From positions 1 to 64,000 of the forward strand of contig KZ537985.1 in assembly GCA_000934665.2 (NCBI GenBank): a stretch of 64,000 bases of DNA. The letters are read 5' to 3'. Source of the stretch: Catajapyx aquilonaris (Eukaryota). A program made the translations under genes and the position numbers. The notes under the pieces were generated by a model, which did no database searches, had not been told where the DNA came from, and saw only the letters and a list, made by a program, of their open reading frames with translations. This document shows positions 1 through 59,069 of this stretch, one piece after another. Numbering within the stretch: the first letter of the stretch is position 1; every line of letters begins with the position of its first letter.

Positions 1-604
1 TAGAAATGACTGAAACAAGACTGGGCTGCGTAAGATCTTCAACCTTATGGATAAATGTAACCCAGAGATCTTACTTCCGCATTTTACACAATAATTAGAT
101 TTTTTGTATAATGGTGATGATCAAAGCGTCTTTGTTCATCAAGGTATAGTTGTGCAATTTGGGTGCTTATAATAATAATATAATAATAAAAATTAATAAT
201 ATGATAATAAGAATAAACGATAAAAATAAACAAAATTGGTTCATAGATTAGCTGAGTGGTTGGAAGGTTAAATGTTTCACATTATAATAATTCACACATA
301 ATAATATAATATATAATATAATATATAATATAATATATAATATATATTTAGTAAGGATAAAGGATAAATATAATCCTTGAATTAATTAATTTGTTCATCG
401 ATTTACTGAGTAGCTTGAATATTATTTTAATGGTCCACATATTGGCTTATTAGCATTAGGATGGCTGATGGACAAAGGCGCTTTGATCATCACCATGCTA
501 CAAACCTAATTATTGTGTAAAATGCAGAAAGTAAGATCTCTGGGTTACATTTATCCATAAGGTTGAAGATCTTACGCAGCCCAGTCTTGTTTCAGTCATT
601 TCTA
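1..604. mobile_element. Foldback/MITE-like element with ~140 bp inverted arms and AT-rich spacer; may continue past the window edge
   Basis: 1-140 is the near-exact reverse complement of 467-604 (tagaaatgactgaaacaagactgggctgcg... vs ...cgcagcccagtcttgtttcagtcatttcta). The spacer is low-complexity (aat)n/(ata)n. Confidence 0.75.
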
Positions 605-740
605 TCCGTTACTTGGATCTTACTTTCCTTTTTTTTTACAATTCCGTAGGGAATTAGTTTTTGTGATAATTAGATAGTAAACCATTTCTGGGATATTGTT
701 CTTATTACCTTGTGTAGACGATGCCTTACGAGGCAGGTTA

Positions 741-1945
741 CTAGGCACCACCTGCTGCAAGGAGTAGAATGAGTTATATATTTTCCGAAAATAGTTATTG
801 TGCCGGAAGTAATGCCCAGACTGACATTGAAATCGACGATTTTTTTCCAACTCAAAGAGACAAGATAACTTCCCCAAAAATTCTCACTCTAATTACTTAG
901 AAATAAGTGTATCTACGTTAGAAATTAGATGCTTTTATGTACAGTATAGGCAAATCTCGATTTACCTTTCTCTACGTACTGGCGCATGGCTTCCATGTCA
1001 CTGGCTGCAATGAGAAATAATACCATTAAATTTCTTGAGATTTGGGTTGAATTATAACGCGATATTGCTTTCCTGGACTCAAATTATTCGAAAAGAAGGA
1101 AATGTTAAAAATTATGGTACTTTTATACGTTTTCTGATACGGAGAATAAGACAATTTAGTTTCTTAAGATTTAGAGTGAATTTTCTTGGTATACGAGTAT
1201 TTCTCTTTCACTCGAATTACTTAGAAGGAAGTGTAGCCTACGTTAGAAATTGAAGGCTTTTATGTATACAATATAAGCAAGTCTCAATTTACCTTTCATT
1301 TTTTCGCGCATGGCTTCATTTTCAGCTGCAACGAGAAATAATACAATTAACTTTCTTGAAATTTGGGGTGAATGAACTAGATATTCCTTTCTTGGACGCT
1401 GAAGACGCTGACGTCTGGTTGATGCACTAGAATGAAACCCTGTATAGCTAAGGTTCGCGGTTGGCAAAGCCACAATAACGTTCGTTGGCCTGCGGCGCAT
1501 AATCAGGTCCGCATTGTTGTCTGATTCAAAACCCACAATAAGTTGAAAAGTACCGATGGTTTTAGAGTCTCAATTATTACAGGTGAAGTGGGGGAAGTGC
1601 ACACCCGGGGTAAGTGCACTTCCCCCACTTCACCTTAGCCTATTTTTTTCCCTGCAGTGTACACCACTGTCTTTCGCCTTTGCATGATTGAAATGAAGCA
1701 AAGATAAGCTCCTGGATCTGGATAATTGTATGTAATCATCATCTCATTGATATACTCTATAATTTTCGCCAACACTCACATAAACATACATTCCGTTAGA
1801 TCCAGAGAGAGTTTTGATAGTGAAATATAAAAACTGAATGTCTATGTCATAAAATTGAGAGATGTATTGTATTACCTTCCTCTGGAGCTGTCCAAACACT
1901 GATGGCCATGAGGAGGATCAAAAAGCAGAGCAGGAGGAGCTTCAT
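741..1945 (-). CDS. Secreted small-peptide precursor, copy 1 (50-51 aa): MKLLLLCFLILLMAISVWTAPEE-AENEAMREKMK-ASDMEAMRQYVEK-(A)GGA*
   Basis: Exons 1945-1876, 1325-1293, 1004-966, 754(or 751)-741. All introns are GT-AG with pyrimidine tracts and phase 1. The hydrophobic signal-like N-terminus and flanks are paralogous to copies 2 and 3. Confidence 0.75.
1581..1635. repeat. Perfect 22-bp inverted repeat (mini-MITE/hairpin) in intron 1 of peptide copy 1
   Basis: aggtgaagtgggggaagtgcac (1581-1602) and its reverse complement at 1614-1635, with an 11-nt loop. Confidence 0.8.
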
Positions 1946-2816
1946 CTTGGTGCTATTGACTTCTCCGGTTGCTGTTCGACAGGCGTTGCTCTTTTCGTAT
2001 TGTAGCTTTCTGGCAACAGGACTGTTGACTGTTGCCTAGCTAACTGCAACTATGTGGATGCTCTGTCAATATCCTAGGTGACGTGTTGAAATGTGAGTTC
2101 TATAAATCGGCCGTGCTCCTTGTATAGCTTTGTCCCTAATACAATACTGTATATTGCTGACAGTGTTCTATCGCTATTCTCTGTGGTGGTCACGCGCGAG
2201 AGGCTTGAGCCGATTCAGTTACAAATTAGTTCCTATCATTCCATTGTCAACAGTCATACGATAATCATAAGTATATTATAAATAAACTGCGAAGACACAA
2301 TGACGCACAAAGCTCTGATTGTTTCCTATTAATGTGAGCAACAGTTCTTTCGCATTGTCTGGTGATATCCTGCTGTATAGGTTATGTTATCCTTAGATGT
2401 TATTATTCTGGGTGTTTGAAACGCTTCCCATGAAATCTAACAAGTCATGATTCATTACACTGAATGGGTTTTGCGCGTATTTTTAGTACATAATTGTGGT
2501 CAGCTGGCGTCTTCTTCAAAGCTGACTACCACTCTTCGTATGTAATGGATGCATCAATCAACTGTAAAAATAGGAACAGTTACATAAAATAAAAGCCTTC
2601 AAATTCTGCGTCAACGATGGCGGGAATCAATTCGTTTCGCTGAATCACTGAGAATGTTACGATGCAACATATGACAATTAAAAGCAAGGAAATAAAATGT
2701 ATCTTACCGAATCCACCATCCCTTGATCCTACTCGGCGAATTGAGAAATTAAGATGGTTTTTAGATTGTGAAATTTTTGGGGGATTTTGTCCTCATTACC
2801 TTGTTTAGACGCTGCC

Positions 2817-3528
2817 TTACTTGGCAGGTGGATTGTTGGCAACTGCAAAAAAGTACAAGCTAAAATTAGGCACTGAACTTCAGTCTGGCACCGTATTAGG
2901 CCTACATGATGGCTTTTAAAAACTGTAGTCAAGGTTAACCTTAACAATAATATATTATTATTGGCATGTATGGAACCAGGAGCCAATACCGAGCCGAGTT
3001 TATGTGTTCCCATTAGGGTATACCGTTGAGGGTGAAAATCTCAGTTACCGTGCTTAGCAATGGCTTCCGCAAGAGCTGCAAAAAAGAAATAAAACAATTT
3101 AGTTTTTCCAGAATTAGAGTTAATTTTCTCGATATTACTCTTTTTGACTCGAATTACTTAGAAAGAAGTCTTTGTTATAAAATAGACTGTTTTAAATGCA
3201 AGTCTCAATTTACCTTTCATTGATAAACGGATGTCTTCCGGGCCGTCATCTGAAACAAGATATAATACCATTTATTAAGTTTCTTGAGATTTATAGCGAA
3301 TTAACTCGATATTCATTTCGGTTTAACTCTACCAGCGTTTTACGATCCAATTGAAAATATTTTCCGAGGTTCCCTAACCAAGTGTTGAAATGAAATATAC
3401 CGGTAATTATTATAAACTGAATGTCACGTATTTCATAAAATTGAGAGGTGTATTATACCTGGAAGGGGAGCTGTCCGGACACTGATGGCCACGAGGAGGA
3501 TCAAAATGCAGAACAGGAGAAGCTTCAT
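2817..3528 (-). CDS. Secreted small-peptide precursor, copy 2 (52 aa): MKLLLFCILILLVAISVRTAPLP-DDGPEDIRLSMK-ALAEAIAKH-VANNPPAK*
   Basis: Exons 3528-3459, 3249-3214, 3075-3049, 2842-2817. Canonical GT-AG sites, all phase 1. A further donor lies just after the stop (exon end 2800), with a likely 3'UTR exon starting near 2561. Confidence 0.8.
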
Positions 3529-4572
3529 CTTGGTGAGACTGGTGTCTTTGCCGGTTGCTGTTCTAATTGTAGTATCCTGGCAACAGGACTGTTGACCACC
3601 TCTTGACTTAGGCCAAGTTAACTGCAACAATTGATGTTATGTCGATGTGTTGTTGAAATGTGAGCTGAATCGATCGTGCTCCTAGACGAACACCTTGTAG
3701 AGTGGTTGTTACACCAGACCATCTTGTGTTATATCGGTATTCTCTGTGGTGGTCACGTGCGAGAGGCGTGGGCCTCTTTAATCACATAGTTCCTATCATT
3801 CTATTGTTAATAATCAGAAATTATAAATAAACTGCAAAGACCAATGGAAGCACAAAGCTCCGATTGTCATAATACTCTATGCGACAAGCGCTAAATGGAG
3901 GGCATGAGATATCACTTGGTACCCAAGCACATTGCCTCACTATCATCCCACCATTCTGTCTTTTTGTAATTACTAATTAGACGAATGCTGGCCAAAATAT
4001 TGCATTCCAAATCGTCATTCCACATCGCCATTGTATCGCATGCGCCAAGGCCTGATGGTGTCGAGTGTCATGCGGTGAGCAACAAGACTTTCGCATGTCT
4101 GGTGATATACTGTATAGGGTATAGGTTATGTTATGCTGAAATGTTATTATTCTGGGTGTTTGAAACTCTTTCCATGAAACCTTACAAGTCATGATTTATT
4201 ACACTGAATGGGTTTTGCGCGTATTTTAGTACATAATTGTGGTCAGTTGTAGTCTTCTTCAAAGCTGACTACCTCGCTTCGTATGTAATGGAAGCATCAG
4301 TCAGCCGCTGCAAAAATTGGAACAGTTACATAAATAAAGCTTGAAGATCAAAAACCTAATCTTTCAAATTCCGCGTTAAAGGTAGAATCATTGAGTTTCA
4401 CTGAATCACTGAGAACGTTACGATGCAACTTAAATATGACAATTGAAAGCGATAAGGAAATAAAACGTATCTTACCGAATCCAACATCCCCTGGTTCTGC
4501 TCGGCGAATTGAGAAATTAAGATGGTTTTTAGATTGGGAATTTTTGGGGGGATATTGTCCTCATTACCTTGT

Positions 4573-5612
4573 TTAGACGCTGCCTTGCTTGGCGGCAACT
4601 GCAAAAAGTACAAGCTAAAATTAGGCGCTGGACTTCAGGAGGTAAGGGAGGTGTCACTCATTAGTTTCATGAAGGGGCCCTCCTGCCTTATGAGACCATG
4701 TCCTTATTGCTTCAACAAGTTGCGACTTGCAGCAACCCATAACAACTGGCATGGATGTACTGTAGTCAAAGCTAATCCTAACTGACAATTATTATTATTG
4801 GCAAGTTTAGGACAAGGAGCCAATGGCGAATACCGTTGAGGGTGAACGTCTCAGTTACCGTGATTAGCAATGGCTTCCGCAAGACCTGCAAAAAAGAAAT
4901 AAGACAATTTAGTTTTTCCATATTTACAGTGAATTTTCTCGGTATTACTCGAATCACTTAGAAAGACGTGTATGTTATGAATTAGATGGTTTAAAGGCAA
5001 GTCTCAATTTATTTTTATTTATTTTTTATTGATACCCCGTGCTCGAGGCTCGTTTAGGGGGGTGGGCTACCACCATCTGTGGTGAAACTAGTATACTGAA
5101 AGTATTTAGTGTGTTTCACGGGTCGTTAGGAGGGGATGTGCAAAGTGCATGTGCGCTGTCGTTAATTGGTCATTTTGTGAACTCCCCCGGGTGGCTTAGT
5201 CTATCGGAAATTGCCACCCGAAACGAAGCCAGAGATGGCCCAACTCCGCACGAAAGAAGGTGGGAACCCCGGGTGGGGATCGAACCCGGGACCTTAACTT
5301 CCGTGGGCGCGCGCGTTACCGCGGCGCCACTCCGTCTCCCTGGCAAGTCTCAATTTACCTGCTATTATTACACGGATGTCTGGATCGTCAACTGAAACAA
5401 GAAATAATGCAATTTATTAATTTTCTCGGTGTTAATGGCCAACACTCCTCCAAAGATGTTAGTTCCATTGATAGTTTTGATATGAAATATAATTATTATA
5501 AACTGAATGTCGCATATGCCATAAAATTGAGAGGTGTATTACCTGGAAGGGGAGCTGTGCTGACACTGATGGCCACGAGGAGGATCAAAAAGCAGAACAG
5601 GAGAAGCTTCAT
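4573..5612 (-). CDS. Secreted small-peptide precursor, copy 3 (51 aa): MKLLLFCFLILLVAISVSTAPLP-VDDPDIRVIIA-GLAEAIANH-VAAKQGSV*
   Basis: Exons 5612-5543, 5391-5359, 4885-4859, 4598-4573. Same exon structure and phases as copy 2. A minus-strand AATAAA at 4195-4200 lies in the predicted 3'UTR exon. Confidence 0.8.
5012..5341 (-). mobile_element. tRNA-derived SINE (~330 bp) with 16-bp target-site duplication
   Basis: The minus strand starts AGGGAGACGGAGTGGCGCCGCGG (A-box-like), has GGTTCGATCCC (B box) and ends in an A-rich tail. TSD ggcaagtctcaattta at 4996-5011 and 5342-5357. The element is absent from the matching intron of copy 2. Confidence 0.9.
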
Positions 5613-6439
5613 CTTGGTGCGCTTGTGTCTTTGCCGGTTGCTGTTCGAATTGTAGTGTCCTTGCAACAGGACTGTTGACTATCTCCAGGTTAACTGCAAG
5701 AATCGATGTTATGTCAATATCCTGTGTTGTTGAGTGAGTTCTCTGAATCGTTCGTGCTCCTATTAGACGGACACCTTGTAGCGTTGTCCTTAATATATAA
5801 TAGTTCCTGAGTGGTTGTTACGCCATACTCGCTTGTGTTATATCGCTATTCACTGTGGTGGTCACGAGGGAGAGACGTGGGCCTCTTCAATTGCAAATTG
5901 TATAGTTCCTATCATTCCATTGTTAACAATCAGAAATTAGAAATCCACTGCGAAGGCAAATGGAAGCACAAAGCTCCGATTGTAGCTACTACCAAAGCGC
6001 ATTGGCTCACTATCATCCCACCGTTCTACATCTTTTTGTAATATTATTAGACGATGGTTGGCCAAATTGCATTCCAAATCATCATTCCACATCGGCATAT
6101 TGGGTGATTACTAGTAAGCTGTCGCCTGCGCCACTCAGAGCAGCTGGAAAGAATAGTAACTAATAGCCAACCCGCTCTTGTTTACTACTGTATGCCGCGA
6201 ATTAAGTTTGATTATCCCGCCTATTGGAGGCAATTAATATTGTGATCATGATGATAATAATTTTGATTATGGGTGTTTGAAACTGTGGCACCGTTTTAGG
6301 CCTACACGAAATTTTTTTTAAAGGTGCACACTTTCTCTGGAATTATGGTTCCTTTTAAAATGTGAGAAGAAATAATCCTGATTCTTGACGATACCCCCAC
6401 TCACCTATCAGATTATTATTTCTCCTAATAATTCACATA

Positions 6440-6990
6440 GTAGAGGATTAATCCTCCTCATGGCTGATCAGTCACCCAGCAGATTAAATATCCTCCTCAT
6501 GGTTAATAATTATTATCCACGATGAGGATTAATATGCCAGGTGAATTATTACCCATCATGAGAATTATCCTCATGAAGGGGGATTAATCCTCGTCTTGGA
6601 TAGTAATTCCCTTGGAGGATGATAATTCACCTAGCGGATTATCTCATGGCTGATAATTCACCTGACGGATTAATTCATCTCATGGCTGATAATTCACCTA
6701 GCGGATTAATCCTCCTCACGGCTGATAATTCACATAGCGGATTAATCCTCCTCGGGACTGATAATTCACCTGCCGGATTAATCCATCTCATGGCTGATAA
6801 TTCATCCAGCGGATTAATCCTCCTCGGGGATAAATAATTCACCTTGCATATTAATCCTCCTAATGGATAATAAATTGACCTAGCGGATTAATCCATCTCA
6901 TGGCTAATAATAATAATTCACCTAGACTCTTAGAGGATTAATCCTCCTCGTGGATAATAAATTCACCTAGCCGATTAATTCTCCTCGTCT
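6440..6990. repeat. Minisatellite, ~36-bp unit (gctgataattcacctagcggattaatcctcctcatg), degenerate at the edges
   Basis: Direct tandem repeats are visible; the overlapping ORF has a 12-aa periodicity (MADNSPSGLILL). Confidence 0.85.
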
Positions 6991-7118
6991 ATGACACTTT
7001 AAATTCCCAAACAATGAATAAACCAAGGAATAAACCAGCTAAAATGGTAGGTAAGTGGAGGGGGGCGTTATGACTTAAGTTTGGTTTTATGAATGGTCTT
7101 ATGAGGCTATCTCCTCAT

Positions 7119-7430
7119 TCCTGGCAACAGGACTGTTGACTGTTGCTGTTAACTGTAACTCTTGATGTTACGTCGATATCCTGATATGCTATTGAAATTA
7201 GTGAACTTTGAATCTGCCGTGCTCCCTGCATAGTGTTGTCCCTAATATACATAATATAGTTCCTGGGTCTACTCTATTGTTATTTACTGTATAGTGGTCA
7301 CGCGCGAGAGGCGCGAGCCACTTCAGTTACAAATTGTATAGTTCCTCAGTATCATTCCATTGTCAACAATCTTATGATAATCATAAGTTATAAATAAACT
7401 GCGAAAACACAATGACGCACATTGTTTCCG
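7119..7430 (-). pseudogene. Truncated fourth copy of the peptide-gene unit (upstream/5'UTR region only, no coding exon)
   Basis: ctggcaacaggactgttgactgttg...gtggtcacgcgcgagagg...ataaactgcgaa..cacaatgacgcac matches 2010-2310, 3577-3860 and 5660-5980, but homology stops before the ATG exon. Confidence 0.7.
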
Positions 7431-7458
7431 TCATGATATGCAAAACATTCTATCAACA

Positions 7459-7674
7459 CAGGGTGTTCCAAGTATCAGGGTCATTTTTAGTTATCGCTAA
7501 TATCGACATATTTGGTGTAGCGTGTTGTGCCCCCAATCCAGGTGTCCAATGATACGGTATAGAAAAGTTTTTATGCCGTACAGTTGGACACCTGGATTGA
7601 GGGCACAACAAGCTAGGCTACACAGAAATAACTATTGTCGATATTAGCGATAGCTAAAGACAACCCATTGGAAC
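7459..7674. mobile_element. Palindromic MITE-like element
   Basis: Arms such as ttagttatcgctaatatcgaca / tgtcgatattagcgatagctaa and tgttgtgcccccaatccaggtgtccaa / ttggacacctggattgagggcacaaca are reverse complements. The left end cagggtg resembles Tc1/mariner termini. Confidence 0.7.
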
Positions 7675-8493
7675 GTATGAGGAGGCGGAGTCACCCTAAC
7701 CATGTCTCAATCGTGTCTATACATGATATGAAATACGGGATTAAAATACAACTTGAAATTCATGGGCTGAGATGGTCCAATTCGTACGTGAGGATATCAA
7801 TATTAAGACCTTTAAGGCAATGATGTATGGATGTGGGAAGGTCTGATGTGGGGAGAAGAAAACGCCCTCCCCCATCTCCTTGTATAGTTCATCATTGGTT
7901 AATCCTTGTCTATAACGACTGGGCCATGCCCCACTCCATTTAAGCGTTTTACGTGACTAGAATATTTTCCGATCTGGATCCGGTCCACTTCAAACCCCGT
8001 TCGCAATAGCTCCCATATTTCCCCAAGCTTCTTCTTCCCCCATAAGATTGATGCCTTCACCCTGATGGCTGAGTTGCGATTATGACCCTCCCGGTGCCAG
8101 AACGCGGTAACGAACCTCCAGAATTAAATAACCCGCACCGGTCAAGCCAGTTTTTTGCACTATTTATCGATACTACCTCTTCCAAAAAAAAAGTTTGATC
8201 AAGATCGTCAGTCCTGGTGATATATTGGTCTGGAACAACCTTTAGTTTGATTTATGTCCTGTGGACCTCCAGTTCCATTCATTCTTCTTGGAGTGGCAAA
8301 GGGTCAAGGGTGTTTAAGCCTAATAAGTTGTCTCCTGGAAAAGTATAGGTGAAAGTGTGGGAGGTTCTAGGTGCAAATGTGTAGGGCGGGGTTCTCTTTG
8401 ACACGACCAGAAAGGGATGGTTGGCATGGGTGGAAATCAGATCCTTTTGTGGATGGTGACCTGTGTGATTGATTGACCTTGTCCATCTTGCAG

Positions 8494-11400
8494 GAGTGTG
8501 AGCTGCGAGTGTCCCCGAGAGAACCGTGTGGGTTATGGAAGGAGCAGGACCAGAACTGGCAGCGTCTTCGAGACAGACTGGACACCCTGCCGTACTGTAC
8601 TACTGGTGATTCAGAAGGCAAGTTTGTTACATCTGTTTATTTAAAAATCGCCTCCAATATGGAGGGTACAAATTACTCGCAGTATGTGCACCGTCCGATG
8701 ATCTTTCGTCCATTTTCGGTCCATTTACGACGACAGCACATGTTGCAACAGTCGTAGTCAAATCGGCACTGAAAATAGCCAATGTAATAGTGTCACCTTC
8801 GTAAAAGATGCCACTTACCAGCTCTCCTGCGATGTTACACTGCGCATCTTTTGGTCTGATCCCATGGCTGAATCCGTACATGGGCACGTCCGGAACAGTC
8901 TTGGGAGACTCGGAGTTGGCAACAATGGGCTGGGCAACAGGCGGAAACTGAGCGACAGGCGGTCTCTCCTCTGCATTGGCTTGTATGAATGTCCTCGCTT
9001 CTAGTGACCCCTTGTCTCCGGAGGATCTGCTTCTGGCTGAGGGTTTCTTTAAGGCGTCGCAACTGCTGAAGAGGATGAGGATGGCTATGGCAGCCAGACA
9101 CCGGACCAAGGTTGAGACCATGTTGAGCGATGCTGAGAACTGTCGACACAAGCTGTGGCTTCAGGGGTTTTATTCCAGAGAAGACGAATTCGGGGAATGT
9201 TTTCGGACAATGAGAATGGTTGCTCGGAATGTGTTTTTCAGGGAATTGTTATACCACGCTGGAATGTTAGTTGCGTATATGATGATGACGTCTATGAATT
9301 TTTCTGGAAGTCACGTATCATTCATCGTGGCATGTGGAGGATCCTTGAATACTAAAGTACATTACCAATAAGACCACTCCTCATTAACATTGCTTTTTAT
9401 TAGCAGTACAGTACATTTTTACACTGTTTATGGTGTCAAATACGCATTTTGCATTTGTGACTGGAAGTCACTGATTTGTTCTCGTTGACACGTGGCTCTG
9501 ACAGACCCGTCCATTCTGAACAAACGACGGCAGGAGTTGTAGCAGCAGTCCCAGTCTTTTTGACACTGAAACAATAACAAAATATCAACAATTTGAACTC
9601 CACGTATTGTTGTGACTTACTGACATATTCTCCAATCCATTTACAATGGCTGTGAACGCGAGTGATTTCCGGTGGGTAGAAGGACAACAGCTGCCAGGCA
9701 AATTTGAAGTCCTTTTCTACTGACGACATGTCGGTGCTCATTGTGGTCGTAGGTCTCGTAACACTAGGCTTGCTTCTGGGTGCAGGGGTGGTAGGAGTTG
9801 TATATTTTCTATACATAGGGTAAGGCTCGGGTGTGATTTGAAAAAGACTCCCTGCGATCATGTTGGTCAGGGTATCGATGTCGTATTCTTCGTATGTAGA
9901 GTCGGAGATATCATTGTGGTGTGAGATAGGTTTTGCTGTAGTGCTAGACTCGGGTTCTGTGCTGGTTGTATTCGTCGGTGTGGTTGTTGTAGTGGTAGTG
10001 GTAGGTTTAGTTGTGATGGTAGATACGGTTGTAGTAGTGGCCGTCGTGGTTATTGTGATGCTGGCTTCAGTTGTGGTGGTAGGAGTGGTGGCAGGAGTGG
10101 TGGCAGGAGTGGTGGCAGGAGTGGTGGTAGGAGTGGTGGTAGGAGTGGTGGTGGTAGGAATGGTGGTGGTAGGAATGGTGGTAGGAGTGGTGGTCGTGGT
10201 GATCGTGGTCATGATTGGGATGGTGGTGCTGATGCCATCTCCGACCGTCCTGTGCAGGTCGGTATGTTTCGCTTTGGGCCCCATGACTGTGTCGAAATCC
10301 CAGTATCCTAGTCGCTTTCTCTGCGACAATAATGTTTGCATCAGAGGCTTTAGAGTAGTCTTGGGACTGCCCATTCCAGGCCTGTTGGGAGCCTGGAGCC
10401 ATGACGATGGAATGTAATTGTGTTTAGGGATGACACGTTTTGGTTTCATCAGCGGTTGATTAGCTCCATTTTCTGTAAACTGTGCGTAAGGGTTACATTC
10501 AGGTCCCTGCGATAATTACGAGTGGTTTATGAAACCTGGGCTTACCGTGCGTTTGCTCAATGGTGTCCACAGCCTAGGTGGTGAGGGGCTGTAAATGTTC
10601 ACAATTTAATGATTTCAACATGTTGAAATTAAGTTGTTATGACGCTTATGTGTAAATCAATCGAAAACTCACTTGGGAAAAGATGATACGATACCACTTA
10701 GACCAAGCAGCAGAAGTATGGGTGCCAGCATAGTCTCTGCAATAGAAGAATGGTCGGTTTTTTACACGCCTTATTAAATAATTAATACTGCGATTAACAG
10801 TTGGTTGCTGTATAATAGTGCACCTCCTCGTTCAAAAACTGAAACTGAAAAACTCTAACAAAAACTGTCGCGACATACCAATAATTATGTATTAATTGTA
10901 ACTATTTAGAGTAGGCCAAAGAATCGCCATGTATTTAAACAATTGCCATCTTTTATCGATTTAAACTTGCAGACATCAGTGTAAACTTTCCATTACATGC
11001 GACAAATGCACCCATTTTACATGTATAAACATTTTACATATTTCTAAAAAAAATAATGGAATACTCACACACTTAAAAATGTAAAGGCATCCACTGTAAA
11101 TGTTAAATTCCGGAGAGAATTCCTTCCCACCAGACTCACTTCTGCATACTCAGAAAAAGACCCCTAAAACGTTCCGATTACAGCTACATAAACAAAACTT
11201 CCCATTGGTTGCTTATAGATGCACTACAATCCAAAAATTGATACAGGTTAATAAATAACCGCCGGATTCGCCCCTTTTAATGGCAATGTTGAGCTTTTCC
11301 GTTTTGCATTCCTAGAGTGCCTCGCTGCTGACTCCGTTAAGTCAACCCCCGACTTAAAAAAACAACGAAGATAACCAGACGCAAAACAGAAAGTTATTTG

Positions 11401-24300: not shown

Positions 24301-27300
24301 ATTGCATCGTAATCTAAATATCCGGTGGTCCTGTTTAGCATCAATTACGGTGTACTACCGATCAAGCATCAATCACTACCGATCGGTATTTATGATCAAC
24401 CCGACAGCCAACTACCCTCTTATTTATTGGCCAATTATAAAAGACCTGAAATGCATAGTTGCATTGTGATGATTTCAAAGGTTGGAAGTAAGTATGCCAA
24501 TTTTCAGTACTCTCAGTAGTCTGAAAGTTTGGTAGCCCAAAATTAGTTCCATGCAATTCCGCATATGGGCAATGGCGCGACCAAAATGGCTGATTGGCGG
24601 CCTAGTCTTGACATGAAAGGAGCATCAGGCCCCCCTAGAAGACTTTTAGTAAACCACCCAAGGAGGTCGAGAGCACCCCCTGCTGGTGTCGACACGGTGT
24701 CAATGGACCCTAGGCTGCCGCTCGGACAATTCCCGAAGGGCATGAGGGTTTACTGTTTGCATTTCACCCAAAAAGGAGGCACTGCTTGCCAGATGTTTCC
24801 AGAATAGAAGAGGGGGATGTTCCTAAACCACCCCCCTTTTTCTCCTAATCAAAGGGATTCGTGTTACAGCTCCGCCTTGCAATATTCATCTCCGCTTGAT
24901 TAGTTCATTAGCTGCCTAGGCGTTGCCACGTGCTGCTGGGCCTAGTTCTATCGGCCTCCCAAGCCTTTTCATTTCATATTAAATTACGGCCCAGGATTTT
25001 CATGAATATTCTCTTGCTGGCCTGCCGTCTGCCACACACTATATTGTCCTTTGATATCTTATTTAAAACGAGCCAAATGAAGTGCCCTCCCCCTTTCTTG
25101 GATAGTGGTTATGAATATATGGGTGTGATAAGACACTTGCTACTAAGCATGGATGTAATACCCAGTGGCAATTCCTGTCCGATTCGTGCATCGAGTTTCC
25201 CCAAAAATTCGTTCGGGTGGAAAGGGGGGCAATCCGGGCAGATTTGGCCCCGGATATAATCGTGTAATAAAAGAGCGGTAAGCCCCTTCCAGTGTAATCG
25301 CCAGTGGCTCCCTCCCCAACACTAATGCACACTTGGCCTCATTTTCTTTCACTCCAAGGCGCCTGCATCATCTATCACTGCTCCCACGACTGCCATTTAG
25401 AATCCATCACCTAACCTTCCCCTAGATGGAAAATTTCTCCAGAGCCTTACAGTTCCTTTTCATTATGATACCCTCCGTACCTCCCCCGCCTTTGTTATCA
25501 CCGCTTAAATCTATATTCATAGGTTTGGAATCCTTCTTAAGCTGTCCAATCACAGGCTAGGATTTGGGGGGGATTAGAGAGTCACTAGCCAATATTGCCT
25601 ATTCGATGTATTAATTGTTTTTATATTTTTAAATGCAGGTACTTGGGTGTGGTTGGTGTAAACCCGCTTTTGCCAGCGGATGAGCCTGTAGGACGTTCAT
25701 TAGACGCAGCCAGGACGGTGTGTAGCACGTTGCCGGGTTTGGTGGCCCAACAGATCGAAGTATGCCAGACCCATCCGTCAACAATCCACAGCGTGTCTGA
25801 CGGAGCCAGGAAAGGCATCAAGGAGTGTCAGTACCAGTTCCGAAACGAGCGATGGAACTGCACCACCAGGAACGACGAACAAGTCTTTGGATACACGCTC
25901 CAAAGAGGTAAGTTCTCCAAAGTTTGACTCGTAGAAGGTAGTTTTACAAGTAGAAGGTAGTTTTACAAGTAGAAGGTAATTTTACAATTTCCTTGAGTTA
26001 TCACGTTTTGCACCACCACACTACGTAAGACCGCGTAAGACCTTCTAGAAGGTAATTTGACAAGTAGAAGGTAATTTGACAAGTATAGAAGGTATAGTTT
26101 TACAATTTCCTTGAGTTATCTCGTTTTGCACCACCACACTACGTAAGACCGCGTAAGACCTTATATCCAGGTGAGCCTCATTGATAAACTCATTAGAGGC
26201 AAAAAGTCTAGCAACAAATAGGTATCATTAAGGATGAAATGAGCCGGAGGGGTGGGTATTGGTAGCCTCCAGTAGGGTGGGTTACGGGCAGGGTTCCGGA
26301 TGATTCCTTTATGGCGGTGCGAGGAAGCGGGTTAAATTCCAGCCGACTTGTTTTGTGCAAGAGAAGGCTGGGCGCACGCTCCAACGAGTCCTCTGGATTC
26401 GAACCCAGACAGCCGTGAGGCATTTGAAGCGACGCCTGGCAAGGGGACGCCTAAAGCCCCCTCTTCAACTAACGCTATTAACTAGATCACCCCTCAGGAC
26501 GACCCCCTTGTGTAGTCCCATCCAAACACTTTCGCTGCTTTGTATGTACTGGACATTAATGGTGTAGTACTAGTGGCGCCATGAACTTACAGCGGTATAT
26601 AAATTCATGAGGCGTATATGGCATTTCCAACACGGAACCTGTCATTTACGTTCGAATTTTTTTTAAAAAAACCGTTATGGAACGTTAAAGGTTATAGTAC
26701 GACCTTTATTGTTAAGATTGTGACCACCTTCAGTACTTGATGAGTGAAGTGGAGCGAAAGGACAAAACAGAACGTCAGATGGTTATCTAGAGAGTGGAGT
26801 TGGGGACAGGGTGTGGTTCCATCTTGGTTTCATTTCATTTCCTGCGGTTACATCAAGTTGGACCGTGTTGCTGACCTGTCGTCTTGACTGCGGTAATAAA
26901 TAAGGAAGCTTTTGCTAATTTGTTTGCACTATAGGAAAAACCCACGGTGAAATTGATGGAGCCTTCTGTTCTAAACGGGATTGGGCACATTGTAGTGTGT
27001 GGAAATTAATAACCGATTATATAGCAGCAGGTGGTATTTCCAGGACTGCATGTACAGAAAAATCCAGTTTTTGTCCCAAAATGGCCTAAAGCACTGCACG
27101 AACATGTAATCGATTTTTATGAGGAGACATTACTTAATTTCACCTACATAAACCCCTCATCTAGTGTCATTAAGTTCCTATGAACCAACCTGCATTTCTT
27201 AATGTCGCCGTGTCATGATTGGTCCTGAACCTTTTTATATATATATATTTTTTTACCTAGCTTCCTCACAGAGGGCGGAATGGTGTCCCTGGAAGGTAGT

Positions 27301-39300: not shown

Positions 39301-40779
39301 GCGTGCAGGATATCAAGAAAGGGATCCTAGGTACTGGGGGTAGGATTTGTAACAAGACTTCGACAGGACCGGATGGATGTGATCTACTGTGCTGCGGACG
39401 TGGTTACAATACGCAGGTGAGTGTGATGACATCATGGCGTCATTTTCGTAAATGGTGGCTAATTGGAGTTTTAAAAGAATACAATGGAATGTGACAGGAC
39501 CGTCTTTCATCATGGCACTACCAGAGGATAAATAATGCTCTTGGGGACTGAAACATGAAAAGCAACACAGACACCTCCCTGCTCAACATACCTAAGCAAA
39601 AGGTGACGCAGGAGGTCAGGCAAGACTGCATCAATATCTGTCGTGCTAGGAATCCTACGGCTTGGAAAATTCCGCCATTGTTTCCATCTTGGGAATTTGA
39701 ACTGGACATATGAAATACCACACTTTAAAAAAAAAAGGCCAAAGAGCCATCCTATGCCAATGGCTTACTCAACTCATTTTACGACTATTCTTTTGGACAC
39801 CTCTAGCATTCGCAATCAAGTACTCAATTAACCTGGACAACCAACCAAAAAAAAAAGTTGCAGATCTGCACCACCTACTTGAGGTATGCAAAAATTCCTC
39901 GGCAGTAAACCATCCCGTGCAAATTACGACCTAGACGTGCGAAGGTCATACCAATATCTAATGGATTTCTCTAGTACACCTCCAAAACTGCTTTTGCGTG
40001 TCGCCACTAATTAAACAGCCACCTGAGAAGCCACTTGGCTGACCAGTATAAAGTCACTATCAATCTCTACCATCGGGTATTATAGTGTTATTTATAAACT
40101 ACAGTCCACTTAATAAAAGGCTGCTTCTTTTCTTGAAGGCCAAGATTTGTGGTTCCAGAAATGAAAAGACTTGGGGTACAGGTTGGAGGATGGTGGAGGA
40201 GGGGTCACAACACGAAAATTCCATTCCACCAAGTGTGGCTTTCACCTCACGATCAACCTACGATCAGGAGGGATAAAGAATGGACATCTTCATGGAGACT
40301 TTTAACGCCCACAAGTTCAACACTTTTGGCACCCCTTGTACATTGGCATCATAAGAATGAAATATGAGAGACAAGAGCCAAATGTTAAGGCCTGTAGGTA
40401 ACTTATGCCTGTGACTTGGCACAGGTGTGCGAAGCCCTTTCGTGTCACCAAGAGTCGTGCTCATGTCTCACTTTATGACAGGAATTTTAAAATCCTGTCC
40501 AACTCTGCTTGTACCCGGATGGCTTATCTCTAGTCCCACCAAGTTATGAGCCCTTAGCACGTGGCGGTTTCACTTGTTTGTTGATTCTTCCTGGTAGTTG
40601 ATCATTTGACTACGATGACACCTGGTGGATGGGTCCGGCTGGACAGACGCTTTGTAACGACTTTTTCTGTTTTCTAGGTTGTGAGGCACGTGGAGAGATG
40701 TCATTGCAAGTTTATATGGTGCTGCTACGTCAAGTGCAAGACTTGTGTGACTCTGATGGACCTGCACACCTGCAAGTAA
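21381..40779 (+). CDS. WNT16: Protein Wnt-16 (365 aa, 7 coding exons)
   Basis: Exons 21381-21460, 25639-25907, 32056-32212, 36182-36308, 37857-37997, 39195-39416, 40678-40779, all GT-AG and in frame. Kozak gccaccATGG and a signal peptide; [44 protein letters not shown] (lipidated Ser motif). The C-terminus [20 protein letters not shown]...HTCK is characteristic of the Wnt16 subfamily. Confidence 0.93.
22860..22985. repeat. Minisatellite built from ttatacgttatg / ttatccgtat subunits
   Basis: Direct tandem repeats in Wnt16 intron 1. Confidence 0.85.
25930..26162. repeat. Compound tandem duplication: 19-bp agtagaaggtagttttaca units plus a duplicated ~65-bp block
   Basis: The block ttttacaatttccttgagttat...cgtaagaccgcgtaagacctt occurs at ~25980-26044 and ~26098-26162. 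Confidence 0.8.
26385..26470 (-). mobile_element. Degenerate tRNA-like (SINE head) fragment
   Basis: The minus strand has GAGGGGGCTTTAGGCG (A-box-like) and GGGTTCGAATCC (B box); no intact cloverleaf. Confidence 0.4.
28538..28660. repeat. Minisatellite, ~17-bp unit ttatgcaattaaccggc
   Basis: About 7 tandem copies. Confidence 0.85.
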
Positions 40780-41231: not shown

Positions 41232-42372
41232 AGTCAGTAACGGTAGAACATGCTTCTAAATAGTGTTTTCTACATTTCGTGCATAGTGAAATAACGTTGT
41301 GTCACTTCCAAACTTGTGTAGTTCCAAGCAGGCGGGTGCTTGGTGGCGCCACAGTCGCGCCAAAATGCTCCAGCGCCACCTGCCACGTGACGGAACTATT
41401 CCGATGAGCGGTTTCGGTTACGGATCATTTTGTGGTAAACTTATTGCTCTTTGTTGTACAAAATGGTGTACAGTTCATGGAGCTTGTGTTCATAGCAGTA
41501 CCTCAATTCCTAATCGGTGCGATTTCTCCATTGTGAATAAAGACTGGACTGATTAAGACGGTAAAACCAGAAGAATTGAACGTACAAACAGGCAAATGTT
41601 CATTAATACGTTGTAGAAGTGGTTTCATCTCTTATGTGTTATGCGTCATGTGAACCAAGATATTGTAAACTTTTGTTTAAAGACAATTTTCCTACAGAGA
41701 ATTTATATAAGGTGACTAGTTAGTGTAATGTAGCTTTTAATTTATATGTACATCTTTTATGTTCATTGTGAGCTTGTAAATCGGTAACCTGTAGGTGTGA
41801 CACCCAATTTTTTTTAGTCCATCCGACATCTTAAGTTATTATGTTTATCAAAGTAATCACCTCAATTTTATGTCATTCCTAACGTAGATCCATAGATCAA
41901 AGTATCGTAAAATCTGGACAAAAAAAATCATTCGATGTGGTAGGTAGTCCGCCTAAGAATTTCGCAATAAAATTTTCACAGGATATGATATCATTATACT
42001 TCCCTGAGACTGCAATATTTCAGCTTCTGCACAAGCCGAACTCTGCAACCATTGGACGATGATGAAGATGGTAATATAGGTCATCAATGTTAGCTGAAAA
42101 TAATTTAAGAATTATATACCGGTACAGTAGTGAGCGGCCGTTTGAATCCCGCGCCATCCGCTGTTGGCGACCCTGCCTTCCCTTGGCAACCCTGCTCCAA
42201 GATGGCGTCCCCCATGGATTGAGCTGCGGTCTCTGGTCTGTTTGTGTCCGCAATGGACGTGGTGCCTGGCGTACCGGAGGGGATGTGGAGGCGGCGGGCA
42301 CCGGCTGCCTCATGAGCGGGGCCAGGGGCGGCCCAGGGTGCGTCAAGGCTGAAGCACGGGAGCAAGGGCGGG

Positions 42373-44152
42373 ATGGGGATGAGCAAGCTGAGGCTGTCGG
42401 TGGCGGCCTTCCTGGGGCTCACCGTCTGGAGCGCCGTCGTGTACATGCTCAACACAATCACCTTCACTGGAGGAGGAGGAGGAGGAGGTCCTCGCATCAC
42501 TGGTAATCATTATAACAAGAAGGGTAGGGGTTCATGCCATGTAGGTCGTCTGCTAATGTTGTGCGAGTGGTGGTGGTCCATAACATGTGCATGCATTGTA
42601 TAGTGGGATTGTCCCGTCAGCGATGCGTCTTGAGCTTGTGTGCATCAGTCGCCCGGAATAATCCAGAAAATATTATTTTCATTTTCTGTGCTGTTTGTTA
42701 TAACGCTGATGTGAATGTGTGCCTGACGATGATTTTATATGTGGCCGTAGACGTGGAAGAATAAAGCATGGACCCACATGATGAATTTGAACTAACAACT
42801 GAGAACAGCAACTCTGTGTTTGCAGCAAGACTAACATCATGTAGGAAATTGTTGCTGTTGCTTCCCTGCATGGCAAGCAAAGCAGGATGTGACTGATTAG
42901 AACTGTACTGCATGGCTTTCAAGGTGAGTGCATTTCCCTACTTGTACCAATGATGTAGTAGAACAGTGACCTTGTGCCTTGACCCGCAAGAGGATGATAT
43001 CATGGATATCCCATCATATGTTTGTTTTTCCAATGACAGAGTCGAGCCCACAAGTGTGGTCCTTTCACGCCTCATCTCCAAATAGGATCATAATTGACAA
43101 GGAAGGTCTGGAGAAGATCCACCAAGAACGAGTCAACCACCTAGAGAGGAAATGCAAGAAGATGCGCAATACGTCAGCGGTAGAAACAACAACCCTCGCT
43201 TATGAAGGGGAGTTTGCGTCATCACTGAGCCACCTTTTAGTGGATGACAGGCACGTTAGTTGTAATTGGCAATGGGCTTCACTCGCATCATTAGTGATAA
43301 AGTATTGTTCAGAGAAGAATTTTAAATGTTATGTTTTCAGGCACAAGATCCTGTATTGCTACGTCCCCAAAGTAGCATGCACAAACTGGAAGCGTGTGCT
43401 GATGGTCTTAACAGGACGTGCCAACACATCAGATGCCATGTCCATCCCAGCAGATGCACCTCACCGTACACATAACCTTGTTCGGCTGAGTAGCTTGAAC
43501 ACAACTGAGGTCAATGAGAGGCTACACACCTATTCAAAGTTCCTCTTTGCACGTCACCCATTTGAGAGGCTGCTCTCTGCTTTCAAGAACAAGCTGGAGA
43601 AACGTTATGGCAGTTCCAGATATTTTCAGGTATAAGCATCCACTACATTGTTCAGAAGCAAGTTTGTCTTACCATGCTGTCAGTTCCACAAGTAAATTAA
43701 TACAGAATAGCCATAGTAACATGGTCATATAACTATTGCAGCAACGGTTTGGGCGCTACATAGTCAAGAAGTACCGCTCCAACCCATCACTGGAGAGTCT
43801 GACCAAAGGCAATGACGTGACTTTTCGGGAGTTTGCAGAATATCTAGTGGAGCAAAATGTGCGAGAGTACAATGAGCATTGGATGCCCATCTCACGCCTG
43901 TGCCGCATGTGCTCCATTCACTACGATATCGTGGGCAAGTATGAGACTATATCTGTAGATGCGGACTATGTCCTTCAGAAGCTGCGGGTTGGGGACAAAG
44001 TGTCATTTCCTCAGCCACCCCTGGCATCCACAACACGCTCACAAATGAAGAAGTATTTTAGGACTCTGCCGCCAGAGCTACTTCAAAAGCTGCATGATGT
44101 GTATGCCACAGATTTTGCACTCTTTAATTACACAGTGGGCGATATTTTGTAA
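42373..44152 (+). CDS. Carbohydrate sulfotransferase, CHST11-like (Sulfotransfer_2 family, 346 aa, type II membrane protein)
   Basis: Exons 42373-42502, 43040-43250, 43341-43629, 43742-44152. N-terminal TM segment; 5'-PSB motif YCYVPKVACTNWKR; 3'-PB motif FARHPFERLLSAF; NEHWMP, VGKYET and YATDFALFNY. Confidence 0.88.
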
Positions 44153-51150: not shown

Positions 51151-54100
51151 ATGGAACCTCGAAGAAGGATCTGTGCCTGGAGCCTCAGCATCTGGATCAT
51201 TGCATGTAAGTTGTGGACTTATTAGTGGTTCCCATGGGGGGGGGGGGGGCTGTCGAAATAATTGTTCATTGTTGACAACAACGCAACTGGCGATAACTGC
51301 ACCTGTACTAGTTTGTACTAGCCATACCAAAAATTTGCTGACCACTGCAATGTCAGCTTATCGGACCCAGTGCCACGCGTATCTGGAAAATATTACGACC
51401 ATTATAACGATCCATGTGAGTCATGCAAGGGGCGAATCAGTGCAGAAAGAGGGGGGCCACATGGGGTTCAAAAATTACAGAAAGGGCTGGCAGTGTATTG
51501 GCAAATCAGTCAAATCGGTATATCGCCATGTTGAAGGTACAAGCTGTATTTTTAGCGAATTTTGTACGTCACACCGATATGTAACCCGGTATGTTACGCC
51601 TCCTGCGAATGTTTCGCTTCAAAGTTGGGGCTATCCTGTCAATATCTGAAGAGTGGTCTAATGAACTTTTGTGAGGGGGTATAAGAAAAGGGGGGGGGGT
51701 TATTTTGGGATCCACGTACCGCATAATTGGGGTGGCGTAGCTATGATCGGATAAATTCCTGGCTATTGGCCAATGGTCAACTGCTGGTGGATTGGTGGAT
51801 ACGTGCTCTCAGAGTGTTCCAGAACATTTGTGACTTGTTGGTCAGGATTTATGGGGGCGACGTGTTTCGCACATGTGTCATGCACAAGGAGTTACGGATT
51901 CTAGGGATTTATTTGCATATGCTGTAATCACCATGCATTGTCTCCAAAGACGTGAATAGTGATAGGTGAAGATGTCGCCTGATTTTGTGGCCAACATATA
52001 TGAACGAAAGGTCATAACAGCAATTAGCCAAGTTCCTATGACACATTTACAGTACCGGTACATACTTGGAACACCTGCACCGTTGATTTACATGACATTT
52101 CATTTTTTTATGTGACATGCTGATCTGCACATGTCTCAAAAGTCCACAACTTGTGATAGGTTGAACCCCGCCCAGTGTCATATCGTATATTGCGACCTAA
52201 ATGTGGAACAGTTTAGGTCAGCAACCTTCTCGAGACAACAAAAGATCGTAGCCATGCCCATAACCAACAACAATGCACTGGATGCATCATAAATGCAACA
52301 CGGTGACCACATCAGAAAGGTCGTGTGATTCACACTGATCGAACGAAAAGGCGGTGTTTGAGGGATCGATTCATGATCATGTGTTGGGTGAAGCAATTAA
52401 CACCCAATTGCGTCATCTTTCAAAAAAATCCATATACAGTAATTAGCATTTAGGTCAAGAATGCATAAGACACAAGCAGCATTCCTTTAACCAAGTGCAA
52501 GGCACGTGCAGAATGTGCTAAAACAGGATGTAATATAAATGAAAATAGCCAAAGTGCTCTGTAAACAATCGGCAGAAATAACCCCCCCCCCCCCNNNNNC
52601 CCCCCCCCCCCCCATTAGACCTTTTGAACTTAGCGAAACCTAGTGCAATATCGTATAAGTGAGGCTGTCAACGGCCGGTAGTGACATGTTGCAGGCAAAG
52701 ACGCTTGAAACTGACGGTTTTAATGGTTTGAGGAAGGGGGGGGGTCCATTGGATGAGGTTTTTGAAGCAGGCCCCAGAATGAAACCAGACACGGGCGCAG
52801 CTGGCAATTGCACTCGTGGTCAGCGTCGAGTTGCAAAGTCTCCCCTACAAACCCATACCGGCATCGTTATAGCTGAAGGAAATAGAGAGGGGAAAAAAAT
52901 GTTCTTGGAAATGGTCCGTTTCCATTGTGTAGGGTTGGTAGGCATGCTTTGTAAGGGGTGGGTTTATTGTTCTGTTGCCCTCGAAGATTGTTTTTGAATT
53001 CCAGAGATGAAAGTGCTTGGGCGATTGTTTCGCGTTCATCCTGCTGAACCCTTAACATGATTCTTGGGGGGACAGTGAACTAGGTGTAATAATAATAGGA
53101 TGTTGATGTCTAATTGGACTAATATTTCAGGTCTGGCGTGTGCTTCGGCTAATGAGGATAGTGTGCTCGGGACTGACTACCAAGCTGATTCGACGACTTC
53201 TGACCCTGGTTTTGGGGGTTCGGATATGGACTCTGTAGGACCAGAGGATGGAGACAGTGGGTTGGAATTTTACAGTACGGCTGATTTAATCGATGATAAA
53301 AACTCGACTGACTTTGCGACAGCGAATTCATTGGAACACGAGAGTACTGCGACCACTTCGGTTATGGGTAGTGAACAAACCGAGAATTCTTCCAGCAACA
53401 CTACTGGTCTTCCAGAAGTGCAAACTGATGAATCCAGTAAAGGTAATAGCAATGATGGAGACAGTGATGATTCCCGTCAGCAGTTGATCTTCAGCACACC
53501 ATCAACGTCAGCAAACGCCACAGGTGAAGTTCCTTCAGCTGCTTCAACCACTGTCAGAGGGGAAGCTGCAGACGCAGTTCCCAAAACAACTTATACAGAA
53601 AGGAGTTATGTTAACAACACTTTTCCCAGAGCAAATTATACGGACACAAATCACTCTGTTACAAATTCCACAGGTGCAGCTTCTTCAGCTGCTTCAGCCA
53701 TTGTCACAGGGGGACCTACAGGCACAGTTCCCAAGACAAATTATACAGAAAGGAGTTACGTCACTAACACTTTTCCCGGAGCAAATTATATAGGCACAAA
53801 TCACTCTGTTGCTGACACTGCTGCCATACCAACCGCAGACACCAGTTTGCCTATTGCAATGACTTCATCTAGGACATCATTTTCTGCTGTCATGAACCAT
53901 TCTATTGCAGACTTTGTTCCCAAAATAGAGTCTACAGTCAATTCAAGGCAGTCAAGTGCAGATGCTGTTACTGAAGCATATTCAATGGACATGAGTCATT
54001 TTATTACAGATGTAAATACCAGGCGAGAAACTACCAACATAAGTCATTCTATTGCAGATACAGTGCCTAGATTACCTTTGACGAATACAAAGCCTTCTGT

Positions 54101-58994: not shown

Positions 58995-59069
58995 GACTAC
59001 TGATGAGGCGTCAGTTCTGTGGGCAAAAGGACACAGTTTTAATCACCTCTTACAATGGCGGCATTCTGT

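Follow-up and report, generated by a model that had tools for sequence, protein, structure and literature searches.

The stretch analysed here, the first 64,000 nucleotides of contig KZ537985.1 of Catajapyx aquilonaris (hereafter, "the window"), carries near its left end five minus-strand genes whose products begin with secretory-type N-termini. The genes belong to two families. One comprises three tandem paralogues (A, B, and C) and the upstream remnant of a fourth copy (D); the other is a pair of paralogues (G4 and G5) whose products end in a cysteine pattern of the inhibitor cystine knot (ICK) type. All five run antisense to CPED1, the gene for cadherin-like and PC-esterase domain-containing protein 1: G4 and G5 are inside one of its introns, and A, B, and C are most likely inside the preceding one. 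In A-C, the signal-peptide exon is conserved above the introns, and the mature-peptide exons fall below them. We favor, with middling confidence, the interpretation that these are two orphan, lineage-restricted families of secreted-peptide genes, probably with an extracellular function other than venom. The locus had been proposed earlier, from the letters of the DNA, to be a co-regulated toxin or defense locus (the original prediction); much of the gene architecture in that proposal is upheld below, and its venom interpretation is not.

The original prediction placed five genes on the minus strand, and we were able to rebuild all of them at the proposed positions (Table 1); the introns are GT-AG, the frames are intact, and the N-termini are hydrophobic. 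A, B, and C share a plan of four coding exons. Exon 1 is 70 nt long; it is followed by two micro-exons, which measure 33/36/33 nt and 39/27/27 nt in A/B/C and are all of phase 1-1, and by a short final coding piece. All nine donors are GT, all nine acceptors are TTGCAG or TTTCAG, and the introns, every one of them in phase 1, are 138-550 nt long. In B and C, either internal micro-exon can be dropped with the frame left intact. Secretory N-termini were judged from Kyte-Doolittle hydrophobicity over 10 residues. By this measure, all five proteins look secreted: each has a strongly hydrophobic 10-residue core (mean values of 2.7-3.75).

What kind of peptide would A, B, and C release? They had been described as cysteine-free precursors of 51-52 residues. 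The lengths are correct and the mature parts are indeed free of cysteine, but each precursor has one cysteine in its signal peptide. The predicted mature peptides are approximately 32 residues long and would begin with X-Pro dipeptides after the likely signal cleavage, a start that is typical of melittin and cecropin pro-sequences. Their predicted net charges are -3 (A), -1 (B), and -2 (C), and their best 18-residue hydrophobic moments were reached by 57.9% (A), 5.7% (B), and 47.1% (C) of 2000 shuffles. The A-C peptides therefore do not resemble the usual venom or antimicrobial peptides of the cationic amphipathic kind; given their anionic charge and shuffle-level amphipathicity, we rejected a place in the linear cationic amphipathic (cytolytic/antimicrobial) class, and the "linear helical" venom-type peptides of the original prediction are not supported. 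B and C would turn mildly cationic without an acidic N-terminal piece, but no processing site is evident there.

Alignment of the three units shows them to be tandem paralogues. Identity among A, B, and C is 91-96% in exon 1, 80-87% over the 400 nt upstream, 73-88% in the alignable portions of the introns, and 61-73% in exons 2 and 4, which encode the mature peptide. The ratio of nonsynonymous to synonymous differences (pN/pS) is approximately 0.6 for the signal part, as compared to 0.9-2.1 for the mature part (small counts, with 3-10 synonymous differences, Sd). Both of the exonic indels between B and C (3 and 12 nt) are multiples of three, as compared to 11 of the 40 non-coding indels between these genes (hand count). 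In exon 4, CAA in C corresponds to a stop in B. Together, the exon and intron identities, the pN/pS values, and the indel pattern suggest that start codon, signal peptide, splice sites, and reading frame are constrained; the mature peptide appears free, or driven, to change.

A self-comparison of the window using blastn revealed no A-C-type units beyond positions 690-7371. Relic copy D, at the far end of this range, comprises an upstream (promoter/5' leader) region only: positions 5658-5931 match 7119-7371 (68% identity, E 2e-22), and the similarity to the A-C unit stops downstream of a 17-nt element, where coding exon 1 would be expected. This element, which has 6-nt palindromic arms, starts 84 nt upstream of the gene A ATG. 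It is the sole block of at least 10 nt that is exact across the four A-D upstream regions, and it occurs exactly four times in the 64-kb window, each time at an A-D upstream site. It is thus a candidate for a shared cis-regulatory site of the A-D family. The original prediction had further supposed that all five genes are co-regulated; the element is absent from the regions upstream of G4 and G5, where the best match to it has mismatches at 7 of 17 positions, and only strand and proximity tie the A-D family to the G4/G5 family. Adjoining relic D downstream on the minus strand, at the expected site of its coding exons, is a block (6380-7000) of 36-nt tandem repeats (6617-6911, with a 108-nt higher order) and inverted copies of them (6508-6567). 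This block may have truncated relic D.

The gene A-C models are less certain at their 3' ends. A conserved GT donor follows exon 4 in all three genes (after 709 in A, 2800 in B, and 4568 in C), and the lengths of exon 4 up to this donor (46, 43, and 31 nt, respectively) are all 1 mod 3. Further downstream, B and C have candidate extra exons, among them a 24-nt micro-exon whose AG and GTAAGATA flanks are identical between the two genes. When exon 4 is skipped and the extra exons of B or C are used, the frame is open, with a stop at codon 55. In B, the extra exons are candidates for either 3' untranslated region (UTR) or an alternative C-terminus. Because of the conserved donor and these candidate micro-exons, the 3' ends of A-C are not settled, and 3' UTR introns or alternative ends may exist. 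The micro-exons themselves have a history. Gene A contains, at positions 1150-1170 (minus strand), a degenerate version of the exon 3 that B and C use; 13 nt of this remnant are exon-like and would break the frame, and its intron flank is 87.5% conserved (1145-1192 vs. 4898-4945). What functions as the third exon of A (1004-966) is another module, similar to A's exon 2. Micro-exons have therefore been both duplicated and lost in this family.

The second family is built differently. Exon 1 of G4 encodes a signal peptide, a Pro-rich pro-region, and the first cysteine of the pattern (Cys1) plus six residues; exon 2 encodes the other seven cysteines, for a spacing of C-x6-C-x5-CC-x2-CC-x14-C-x2-C. 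In the G5 protein, the signal peptide is followed by an N-terminal part that carries dibasic sites at three places (KR, KR, and RKR) within approximately 100 residues, then by a Thr/Pro-rich mucin-like core with 12-nt repeats at 10073-10194, and finally by a C-terminal cysteine pattern of C-x6-C-x5-CC-x3-C-x13-C; the protein has one extra cysteine in the N-terminal region. The 43-nt exon 2 of G5 is required for the frame, as its omission leads to a stop at codon 39. The large exon sits in a 359-codon open frame that reaches far beyond the Thr/Pro repeats, and the last exon retains the six-cysteine spacing with a 45-codon open frame. A TTGCAG acceptor-like site (10732-10745) is located 5 nt upstream of the G5 start codon, and thus G5 may have an upstream non-coding exon.

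No DNA similarity between G4 and G5 was found using blastn. The last exons of the two genes nevertheless align with 44% identity and share 12 invariant columns, and both genes have a phase-0 intron at the identical point, between Cys1 plus six residues and Cys2. These shared features identify G4 and G5 as paralogues. The introns that split the cysteine-rich module are very short (50-59 nt).

This module provoked a further question: is it an inhibitor cystine knot? The six cysteines of G5 are arranged as C-C-CC-C-C, and the loops between them are of lengths that occur in ICKs; G4 starts in the same way and has one extra pair. Because the domain is split by an intron, the module was searched using the last exons alone, i.e., the part after the intron, without Cys1. 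A search of PDB (177,635 sequences) with the last exon returned mu-theraphotoxin-Cg1a (E 0.17) and omega-atracotoxin-Hv1 (E 0.93), neither of which is significant; variants of mu-theraphotoxin-Cg1a were five of the six sequences among the matches listed (E 0.17-8). Non-significant as they are, these best matches come from spider ICK toxins, and their cysteines are in the correct register. In the ESM-Atlas, the nearest clusters were spider knottin families with scores of 0.76-0.79, a "Beta-diguetoxin-Dc1a family" cluster (0.76) among them; such scores are at the level of leads only. A Pfam search with the four exon translations of G4 and G5 returned no families at E <= 1. AlphaFold2, given the last exon alone (without Cys1 and with a two-sequence alignment), predicted helices with a mean predicted local distance difference test score (pLDDT) of 52.3, too low for the model to be used. 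A profile of the two last exons gave two hits among 1.84 billion representatives (E 1e-4 and 4e-4), both of which were rejected as spurious: they are repeat proteins, not rich in cysteine, that align only to profile positions 15-28 and have no cysteine pattern. Two further parts of the proteins were compared to candidate homologues as well. None of the candidates of 55-177 aa shares three 5-residue words with G4 exon 1 (101 aa), and none of the four candidates (in the range of 161-515 aa) for residues 1-100 of G5 exon 3 matched at E <= 0.01. A six-frame scan for knot-like motifs yielded six matches, namely G4, G5, and four without gene context (8895-8957, 40705-40773, 41431-41520, and 54558-54611).

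The likeness to an ICK thus derives from the cysteine spacing and from non-significant best matches to spider knottins. The label "knottin-like," which the original prediction gave to both genes, is reasonable for the cysteine spacing; membership in the knottin family is only putative, and G5, as a mucin-like protein of 373 residues, is not a small precursor.

Which gene hosts this locus? CPED1 had been named, and the homology searches agree. For the plus-strand exon at 13625-13894, 85 of 94 candidate proteins matched at E <= 0.001, and most of those that bear a name carry a CPED1 annotation; the top match has 75% identity (E 4e-32), and no near-identical CPED1 protein was present in the databases searched with this exon. 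When 10 CPED1 proteins were compared to the window using tblastn, the matches were collinear and confined to positions 8440-17735, corresponding to approximately the last 330 residues; no match at E <= 0.01 was found in 1-8439. The similarity to annotated CPED1 proteins extends over the C-terminal PC-esterase/NXPE-type region in collinear exons, and Pfam NXPE4_C was matched weakly (E 0.016, below the cutoff). On these alignments, the host gene is CPED1, and the window carries only approximately its last 330 codons.

The position of the five genes relative to the CPED1 exons follows from the same comparison, and here, too, the original prediction fares well. Collinear tblastn matches flank the CPED1 intron at 8618-12972, placing G4 and G5 wholly inside it on the opposite strand. 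The CPED1 exon at 8494 had been considered internal; it was matched (as ~8482-8628) by 8 of the 10 CPED1 proteins and corresponds to residues 766-814 of a 1092-aa CPED1. Because this exon is internal and no CPED1 match was found to its left, A, B, and C are most likely in the CPED1 intron that precedes it, as had been supposed; the 5' exon of that intron would be outside the window. With only the last ~330 CPED1 codons in the window, all five genes would therefore be intronic and antisense. An AATAAA at 8641-8636 on the minus strand, next to the end of the CPED1 exon, indicates that the probable 3' end of G4 abuts this exon end on the opposite strand. The CPED1 intron that hosts G4 and G5 apparently opens with GC (8617-8623, AG/GCAAGT) and would be a GC-AG intron.

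A quick maximum-likelihood tree was calculated from the joined CPED1 exon translations and 33 of the 85 homologues (long named representatives of groups plus seven unnamed proteins; the other 52 were left out). In this tree, the window is inside the arthropods as the sister to insects plus decapods, with a Shimodaira-Hasegawa-like approximate likelihood ratio test (SH-aLRT) value of 97. The top identity in the set is 68%, to a horseshoe crab protein.

We compared both families with known systems. The closest architectural analogue of A-C is the micro-exon gene (MEG) of Schistosoma. As these are described in the sources consulted, MEGs encode secreted proteins through a signal-peptide exon and the short symmetric exons behind it; they form gene families and evolve fast (bioRxiv 10.1101/2023.06.21.545858, PMC4350168). 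Likewise, A-C have a signal exon followed by phase 1-1 micro-exons of 27-39 nt, the skipping of which is frame-neutral. However, MEGs are flatworm genes with introns of up to 5 kb, whereas A-C reside in an arthropod-like genome, have introns of 138-550 nt, and contain only two internal micro-exons each (with a candidate third in B and C). The likeness considered here is one of architecture, and A-C lack the full schistosome combination of coding sequence mostly in many micro-exons, long introns, and flatworm lineage. One could nevertheless propose that A-C are an arthropod counterpart of MEGs, in which symmetric phase-1 micro-exons and alternative 3' micro-exons would allow one small tandem array to yield combinatorial secreted peptides, and that, together with the knot pair, of which one member is attached to a mucin stalk, they form a gland-expressed secretory locus (venom, saliva, or defense) inside the CPED1 introns; we deem this proposal highly improbable.

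The disparity between the signal exon (91-96%) and the mature part (61-73%, below the introns) in A-C resembles another known pattern, that of cone snail and spider toxin precursors, which are described as having a conserved signal and a hypervariable mature region (PMC3425536). Unlike those toxins, the mature peptides of A-C are cysteine-free and anionic, and the counts here are too small to separate modes of selection.

For G4 and G5, the spider ICK toxins are the obvious comparison. Segment 11-36 of omega-atracotoxin/hexatoxin-Hv1 (1AXH) has the same spacing as G5 from Cys2 onward (C-x5-CC-x3-C-x13-C). In the alignment of the last exon to mu-theraphotoxin-Cg1a (PDB 8CJQ and related entries), the residues that correspond include acidic ones ahead of the CC and a basic pair behind the next cysteine. 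Cys1 is found six residues upstream in these spider toxins. Unlike them, both G4 and G5 have long pro-regions, and G5 has a mucin-like core; the knot of G4 and G5 is a putative one. Gene structure provides a further contrast: the funnel-web and tarantula (mygalomorph) ICK toxin genes examined in one study are intronless (PMC3425536), whereas the knot of G4/G5 is split. The same study describes a precedent for an intron within a mature knot in the mu-diguetoxin-Dc1a gene of Diguetia canities, in which the ICK mature region is distributed over two exons and the exons are small (PMC3425536). The introns of that gene are 0.89-1.64 kb long, as opposed to 50-59 nt in G4/G5, and this likeness, too, is one of architecture.

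ICK peptides are reported to be widespread in venomous and non-venomous arthropods alike (PMC11288129, PMC5577568). Among them, the agatoxin-like peptides (ALPs) and xibalbins are secreted ICK-type peptides of pancrustacean neuroendocrine tissue or remipede venom, with eight-cysteine and six-cysteine versions (PMC4888303, PMC5577568, PMC11288129). The scaffolds tabulated for them are C-x6-C-x6-CC-x4-C-x-C-x6-C-x-C for ALPs/xibalbin 1 and C-x6-C-x6-CC-x4-C-x9-11-C for the xibalbin 3 domain (PMC5577568, Table 2). The spacings of G4 and G5 differ from both of these scaffolds, and we rejected the two proteins as members of these groups.

We propose the following account. Two unrelated families would have settled antisense in the last large CPED1 introns of an arthropod-like genome. 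The first (A, B, C, and the promoter-only relic D) would be a tandem micro-exon array in which the 70-nt exon provides a conserved signal peptide and the phase-1 micro-exons (27-39 nt) encode a fast-evolving, anionic, cysteine-free peptide of approximately 32 residues. This family would have changed by duplication of whole units, by gain, loss, and duplication of micro-exons, by in-frame indels, and by nonsense changes at the C-terminus. The second (G4 and G5) would be a tandem pair whose sole common part is the C-terminal ICK-spaced module with its phase-0 intron after Cys1 plus six residues. In G4, the module follows the Pro-rich pro-region; in G5, it follows a prohormone-like dibasic N-terminal part and a Thr/Pro stalk, which is mucin-like and probably O-glycosylated. 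Presumably, all five genes are expressed and the cysteines of G4 and G5 form a knot, and this knot could act outside the cell as a stable module that binds a channel, a receptor, or a microbial surface.

Several observations weigh against this account. The G4/G5 last exons, searched alone, matched no curated ICK family at E <= 1. In exon 4 of A-C, the frame that continues the upstream phase is interrupted by stops, whereas both alternative frames are open in all three genes; because of these stops and the exon lengths of 1 mod 3, the true C-termini of A-C may differ from those of the models. Values of pN/pS close to 1, as seen for the mature parts of A-C, would be expected under relaxed constraint no less than under diversifying selection. 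Finally, the knot frame of G5 requires a weak, non-consensus donor (GTCAGT at 9624) beside a consensus GTAAGT, and the latter, 4 nt downstream, would lead to a 32-residue tail without the cysteine pattern. Some of these points would be expected if some or all of the models were non-functional, i.e., decaying duplicates or chance open reading frames (ORFs) in a repeat-rich intron, with the G5 knot exon out of frame and A-C drifting. The stop in B opposite CAA in C, the already truncated copy D, the transposon-like inserts around and inside the genes, and the lack of homologues in the exon-level searches with G4 and G5 fit this explanation as well. Yet all 18 splice dinucleotides of A-C are intact despite intron divergence of 12-27%, exon 1 is conserved above the introns, and the exonic indels preserve the frame. 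In G5, the open frame of 359 codons far exceeds the repeats, and the last exon has kept both its six-cysteine spacing and its open frame. We consider non-functionality unlikely.

If the genes are functional, what might they do? The original prediction suggested that the five genes may constitute one co-regulated toxin or defense locus; on this reading, linear cytolytic peptides would be paired with ICK neurotoxins in a venom or a defensive secretion. All five do look secreted and are encoded on one strand within 10 kb, the conserved signal and hypervariable mature region of A-C follow the pattern described for conotoxins and spider toxins (PMC3425536), and the ICK-type spacing brings up spider toxins as the best, if non-significant, matches. 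But the predicted linear peptides carry a net negative charge (-1 to -3) and do not surpass shuffled versions of themselves in amphipathicity, no upstream element is common to both families, and Pfam, profile, and PDB searches with the last exons gave no significant similarity to any toxin family. Moreover, G5 is no compact toxin precursor, and the G4/G5 scaffolds are unlike every xibalbin scaffold tabulated for the sole described crustacean venom (PMC5577568, Table 2). A venom locus is therefore very unlikely in our estimation, and a non-venom secretory, defense, or signaling role is more likely than a venom role. A signaling role would be specified further if G4 and G5, and possibly A-C, were precursors of peptide hormones or neuropeptides, with the knot as a ligand comparable to ALPs and peptides released at the dibasic sites. 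The three dibasic sites in the N-terminal ~100 residues of G5 are in keeping with this idea, as are the tandem alternative donors of G5, given that ALPs are described as established arthropod neuropeptides whose alternative splicing gives rise to different precursors (PMC4888303). On the other hand, the ALP/xibalbin 1 scaffold (PMC5577568) is found in neither G4 nor G5. There is no Gly-dibasic amidation site beside the knot, and neuropeptide precursors are usually conserved in arthropods, whereas the exon-level searches with G4 and G5 found no homologue. A mucin-like core, too, is unusual in a prohormone. We regard a hormone role as quite unlikely, and the two orphan families of secreted peptides remain the interpretation that we prefer.

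Table 1. Coordinates of the two gene families, their host gene, and other features of the window
Feature	Position	Strand	Details	Basis
Gene A	741..1945	-	Exons 1945-1876, 1325-1293, 1004-966, 754-741; ATG at 1945; 51 aa	GT-AG, phase 1
Gene B	2817..3528	-	Exons 3528-3459, 3249-3214, 3075-3049, 2842-2817; ATG at 3528; 52 aa	GT-AG, phase 1
Gene C	4573..5612	-	Exons 5612-5543, 5391-5359, 4885-4859, 4598-4573; ATG at 5612; 51 aa	GT-AG, phase 1
Candidate extra exons, gene B	2480..2731	-	24-nt phase 1-1 micro-exon 2731-2708; exon starting 2561	Conserved flanks
Candidate extra exons, gene C	4230..4499	-	24-nt micro-exon 4499-4476; exon starting 4307	Conserved flanks
Relic copy D	7119..7440	-	Upstream (promoter/5' leader) region only	Alignment and blastn
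17-nt element	2013..2029	-	6-nt palindromic arms; copies at 3580-3596, 5663-5679, 7124-7140	Exact blocks
Gene G4	8673..9121	-	Exons 9121-8819, 8768-8673; 132 aa; AATAAA 8641-8636	GT-AG model
Gene G5	9428..10731	-	Exons 10731-10673, 10588-10546, 10506-9625, 9565-9428; 373 aa; AATAAA 9401-9396	Model
CPED1, internal exon	8494..8617	+	Earliest exon detectable in the window	tblastn and sequence
CPED1, remaining exons	12973..17735	+	~12972-13115, 13670-13888, 14462-14566, 16445-16528, 17414-17560, 17568/17658-17735	Homologue search and tblastn
Sulfotransfer_2 carbohydrate sulfotransferase	42970-44149		Two exons	Pfam on open frames
Methyltransf_3 O-methyltransferase	58212-59042	-		Pfam on open frames
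Rpr2/Rpp21-like RNase P subunit	60524-61183			Pfam on open frames
Short-chain dehydrogenase	61898-62473			Pfam on open frames

Several repeats and inserts were noted in the region. Starting at position 1 of the window is an element (1-604) resembling a miniature inverted-repeat transposable element (MITE). It has perfect terminal inverted repeats of 76 nt (1-76 and 529-604), imperfect to approximately 140 nt, and lies just downstream of the last exons of gene A, beside the relic of an exon-5 donor. Intron 2 of gene C contains an insert (~5171-5306) resembling a short interspersed nuclear element (SINE); a second copy, with 73% identity and in the opposite orientation, is present at 59090-59228, inside the O-methyltransferase gene region. 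Rfam and ARAGORN searches of positions 1-12000 gave no hits, and the SINE-like insert was thus not recognized as a transfer RNA. A nested inverted repeat at 7478-7666 could form a long hairpin: its inner arms (7518-7615) are 48 nt long and 85% complementary with a 2-nt spacer, and its outer arms are 31 nt long (7478-7508 and 7636-7666). It, too, had no Rfam hit.

Downstream of CPED1, an exon of the Wnt family is present at ~25.6 kb (25589-25924; Pfam E 1e-16). CPED1 and WNT16 are presumably adjacent in vertebrates. Farther along, the 561-codon open frame at 53079-54761 (plus strand) had no Pfam match at E <= 1.

If the genes are expressed, they would constitute two orphan families of secreted peptides that standard ORF-based or homology-based annotation misses, since some coding exons are as short as 14-43 nt, introns of 50-59 nt interrupt the knot domain, and homologues are lacking. 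RNA sequencing and peptidomics would be well spent on the locus; it is not evidence of a toxin arsenal. Expression would also place a knot-type module in an unusual context, in which an intron interrupts the knot and one of the copies is joined to a mucin-like stalk, and would reveal a micro-exon peptide array outside the flatworms. The locus thereby bears on how short secreted peptides arise and diversify within the introns of conserved genes.

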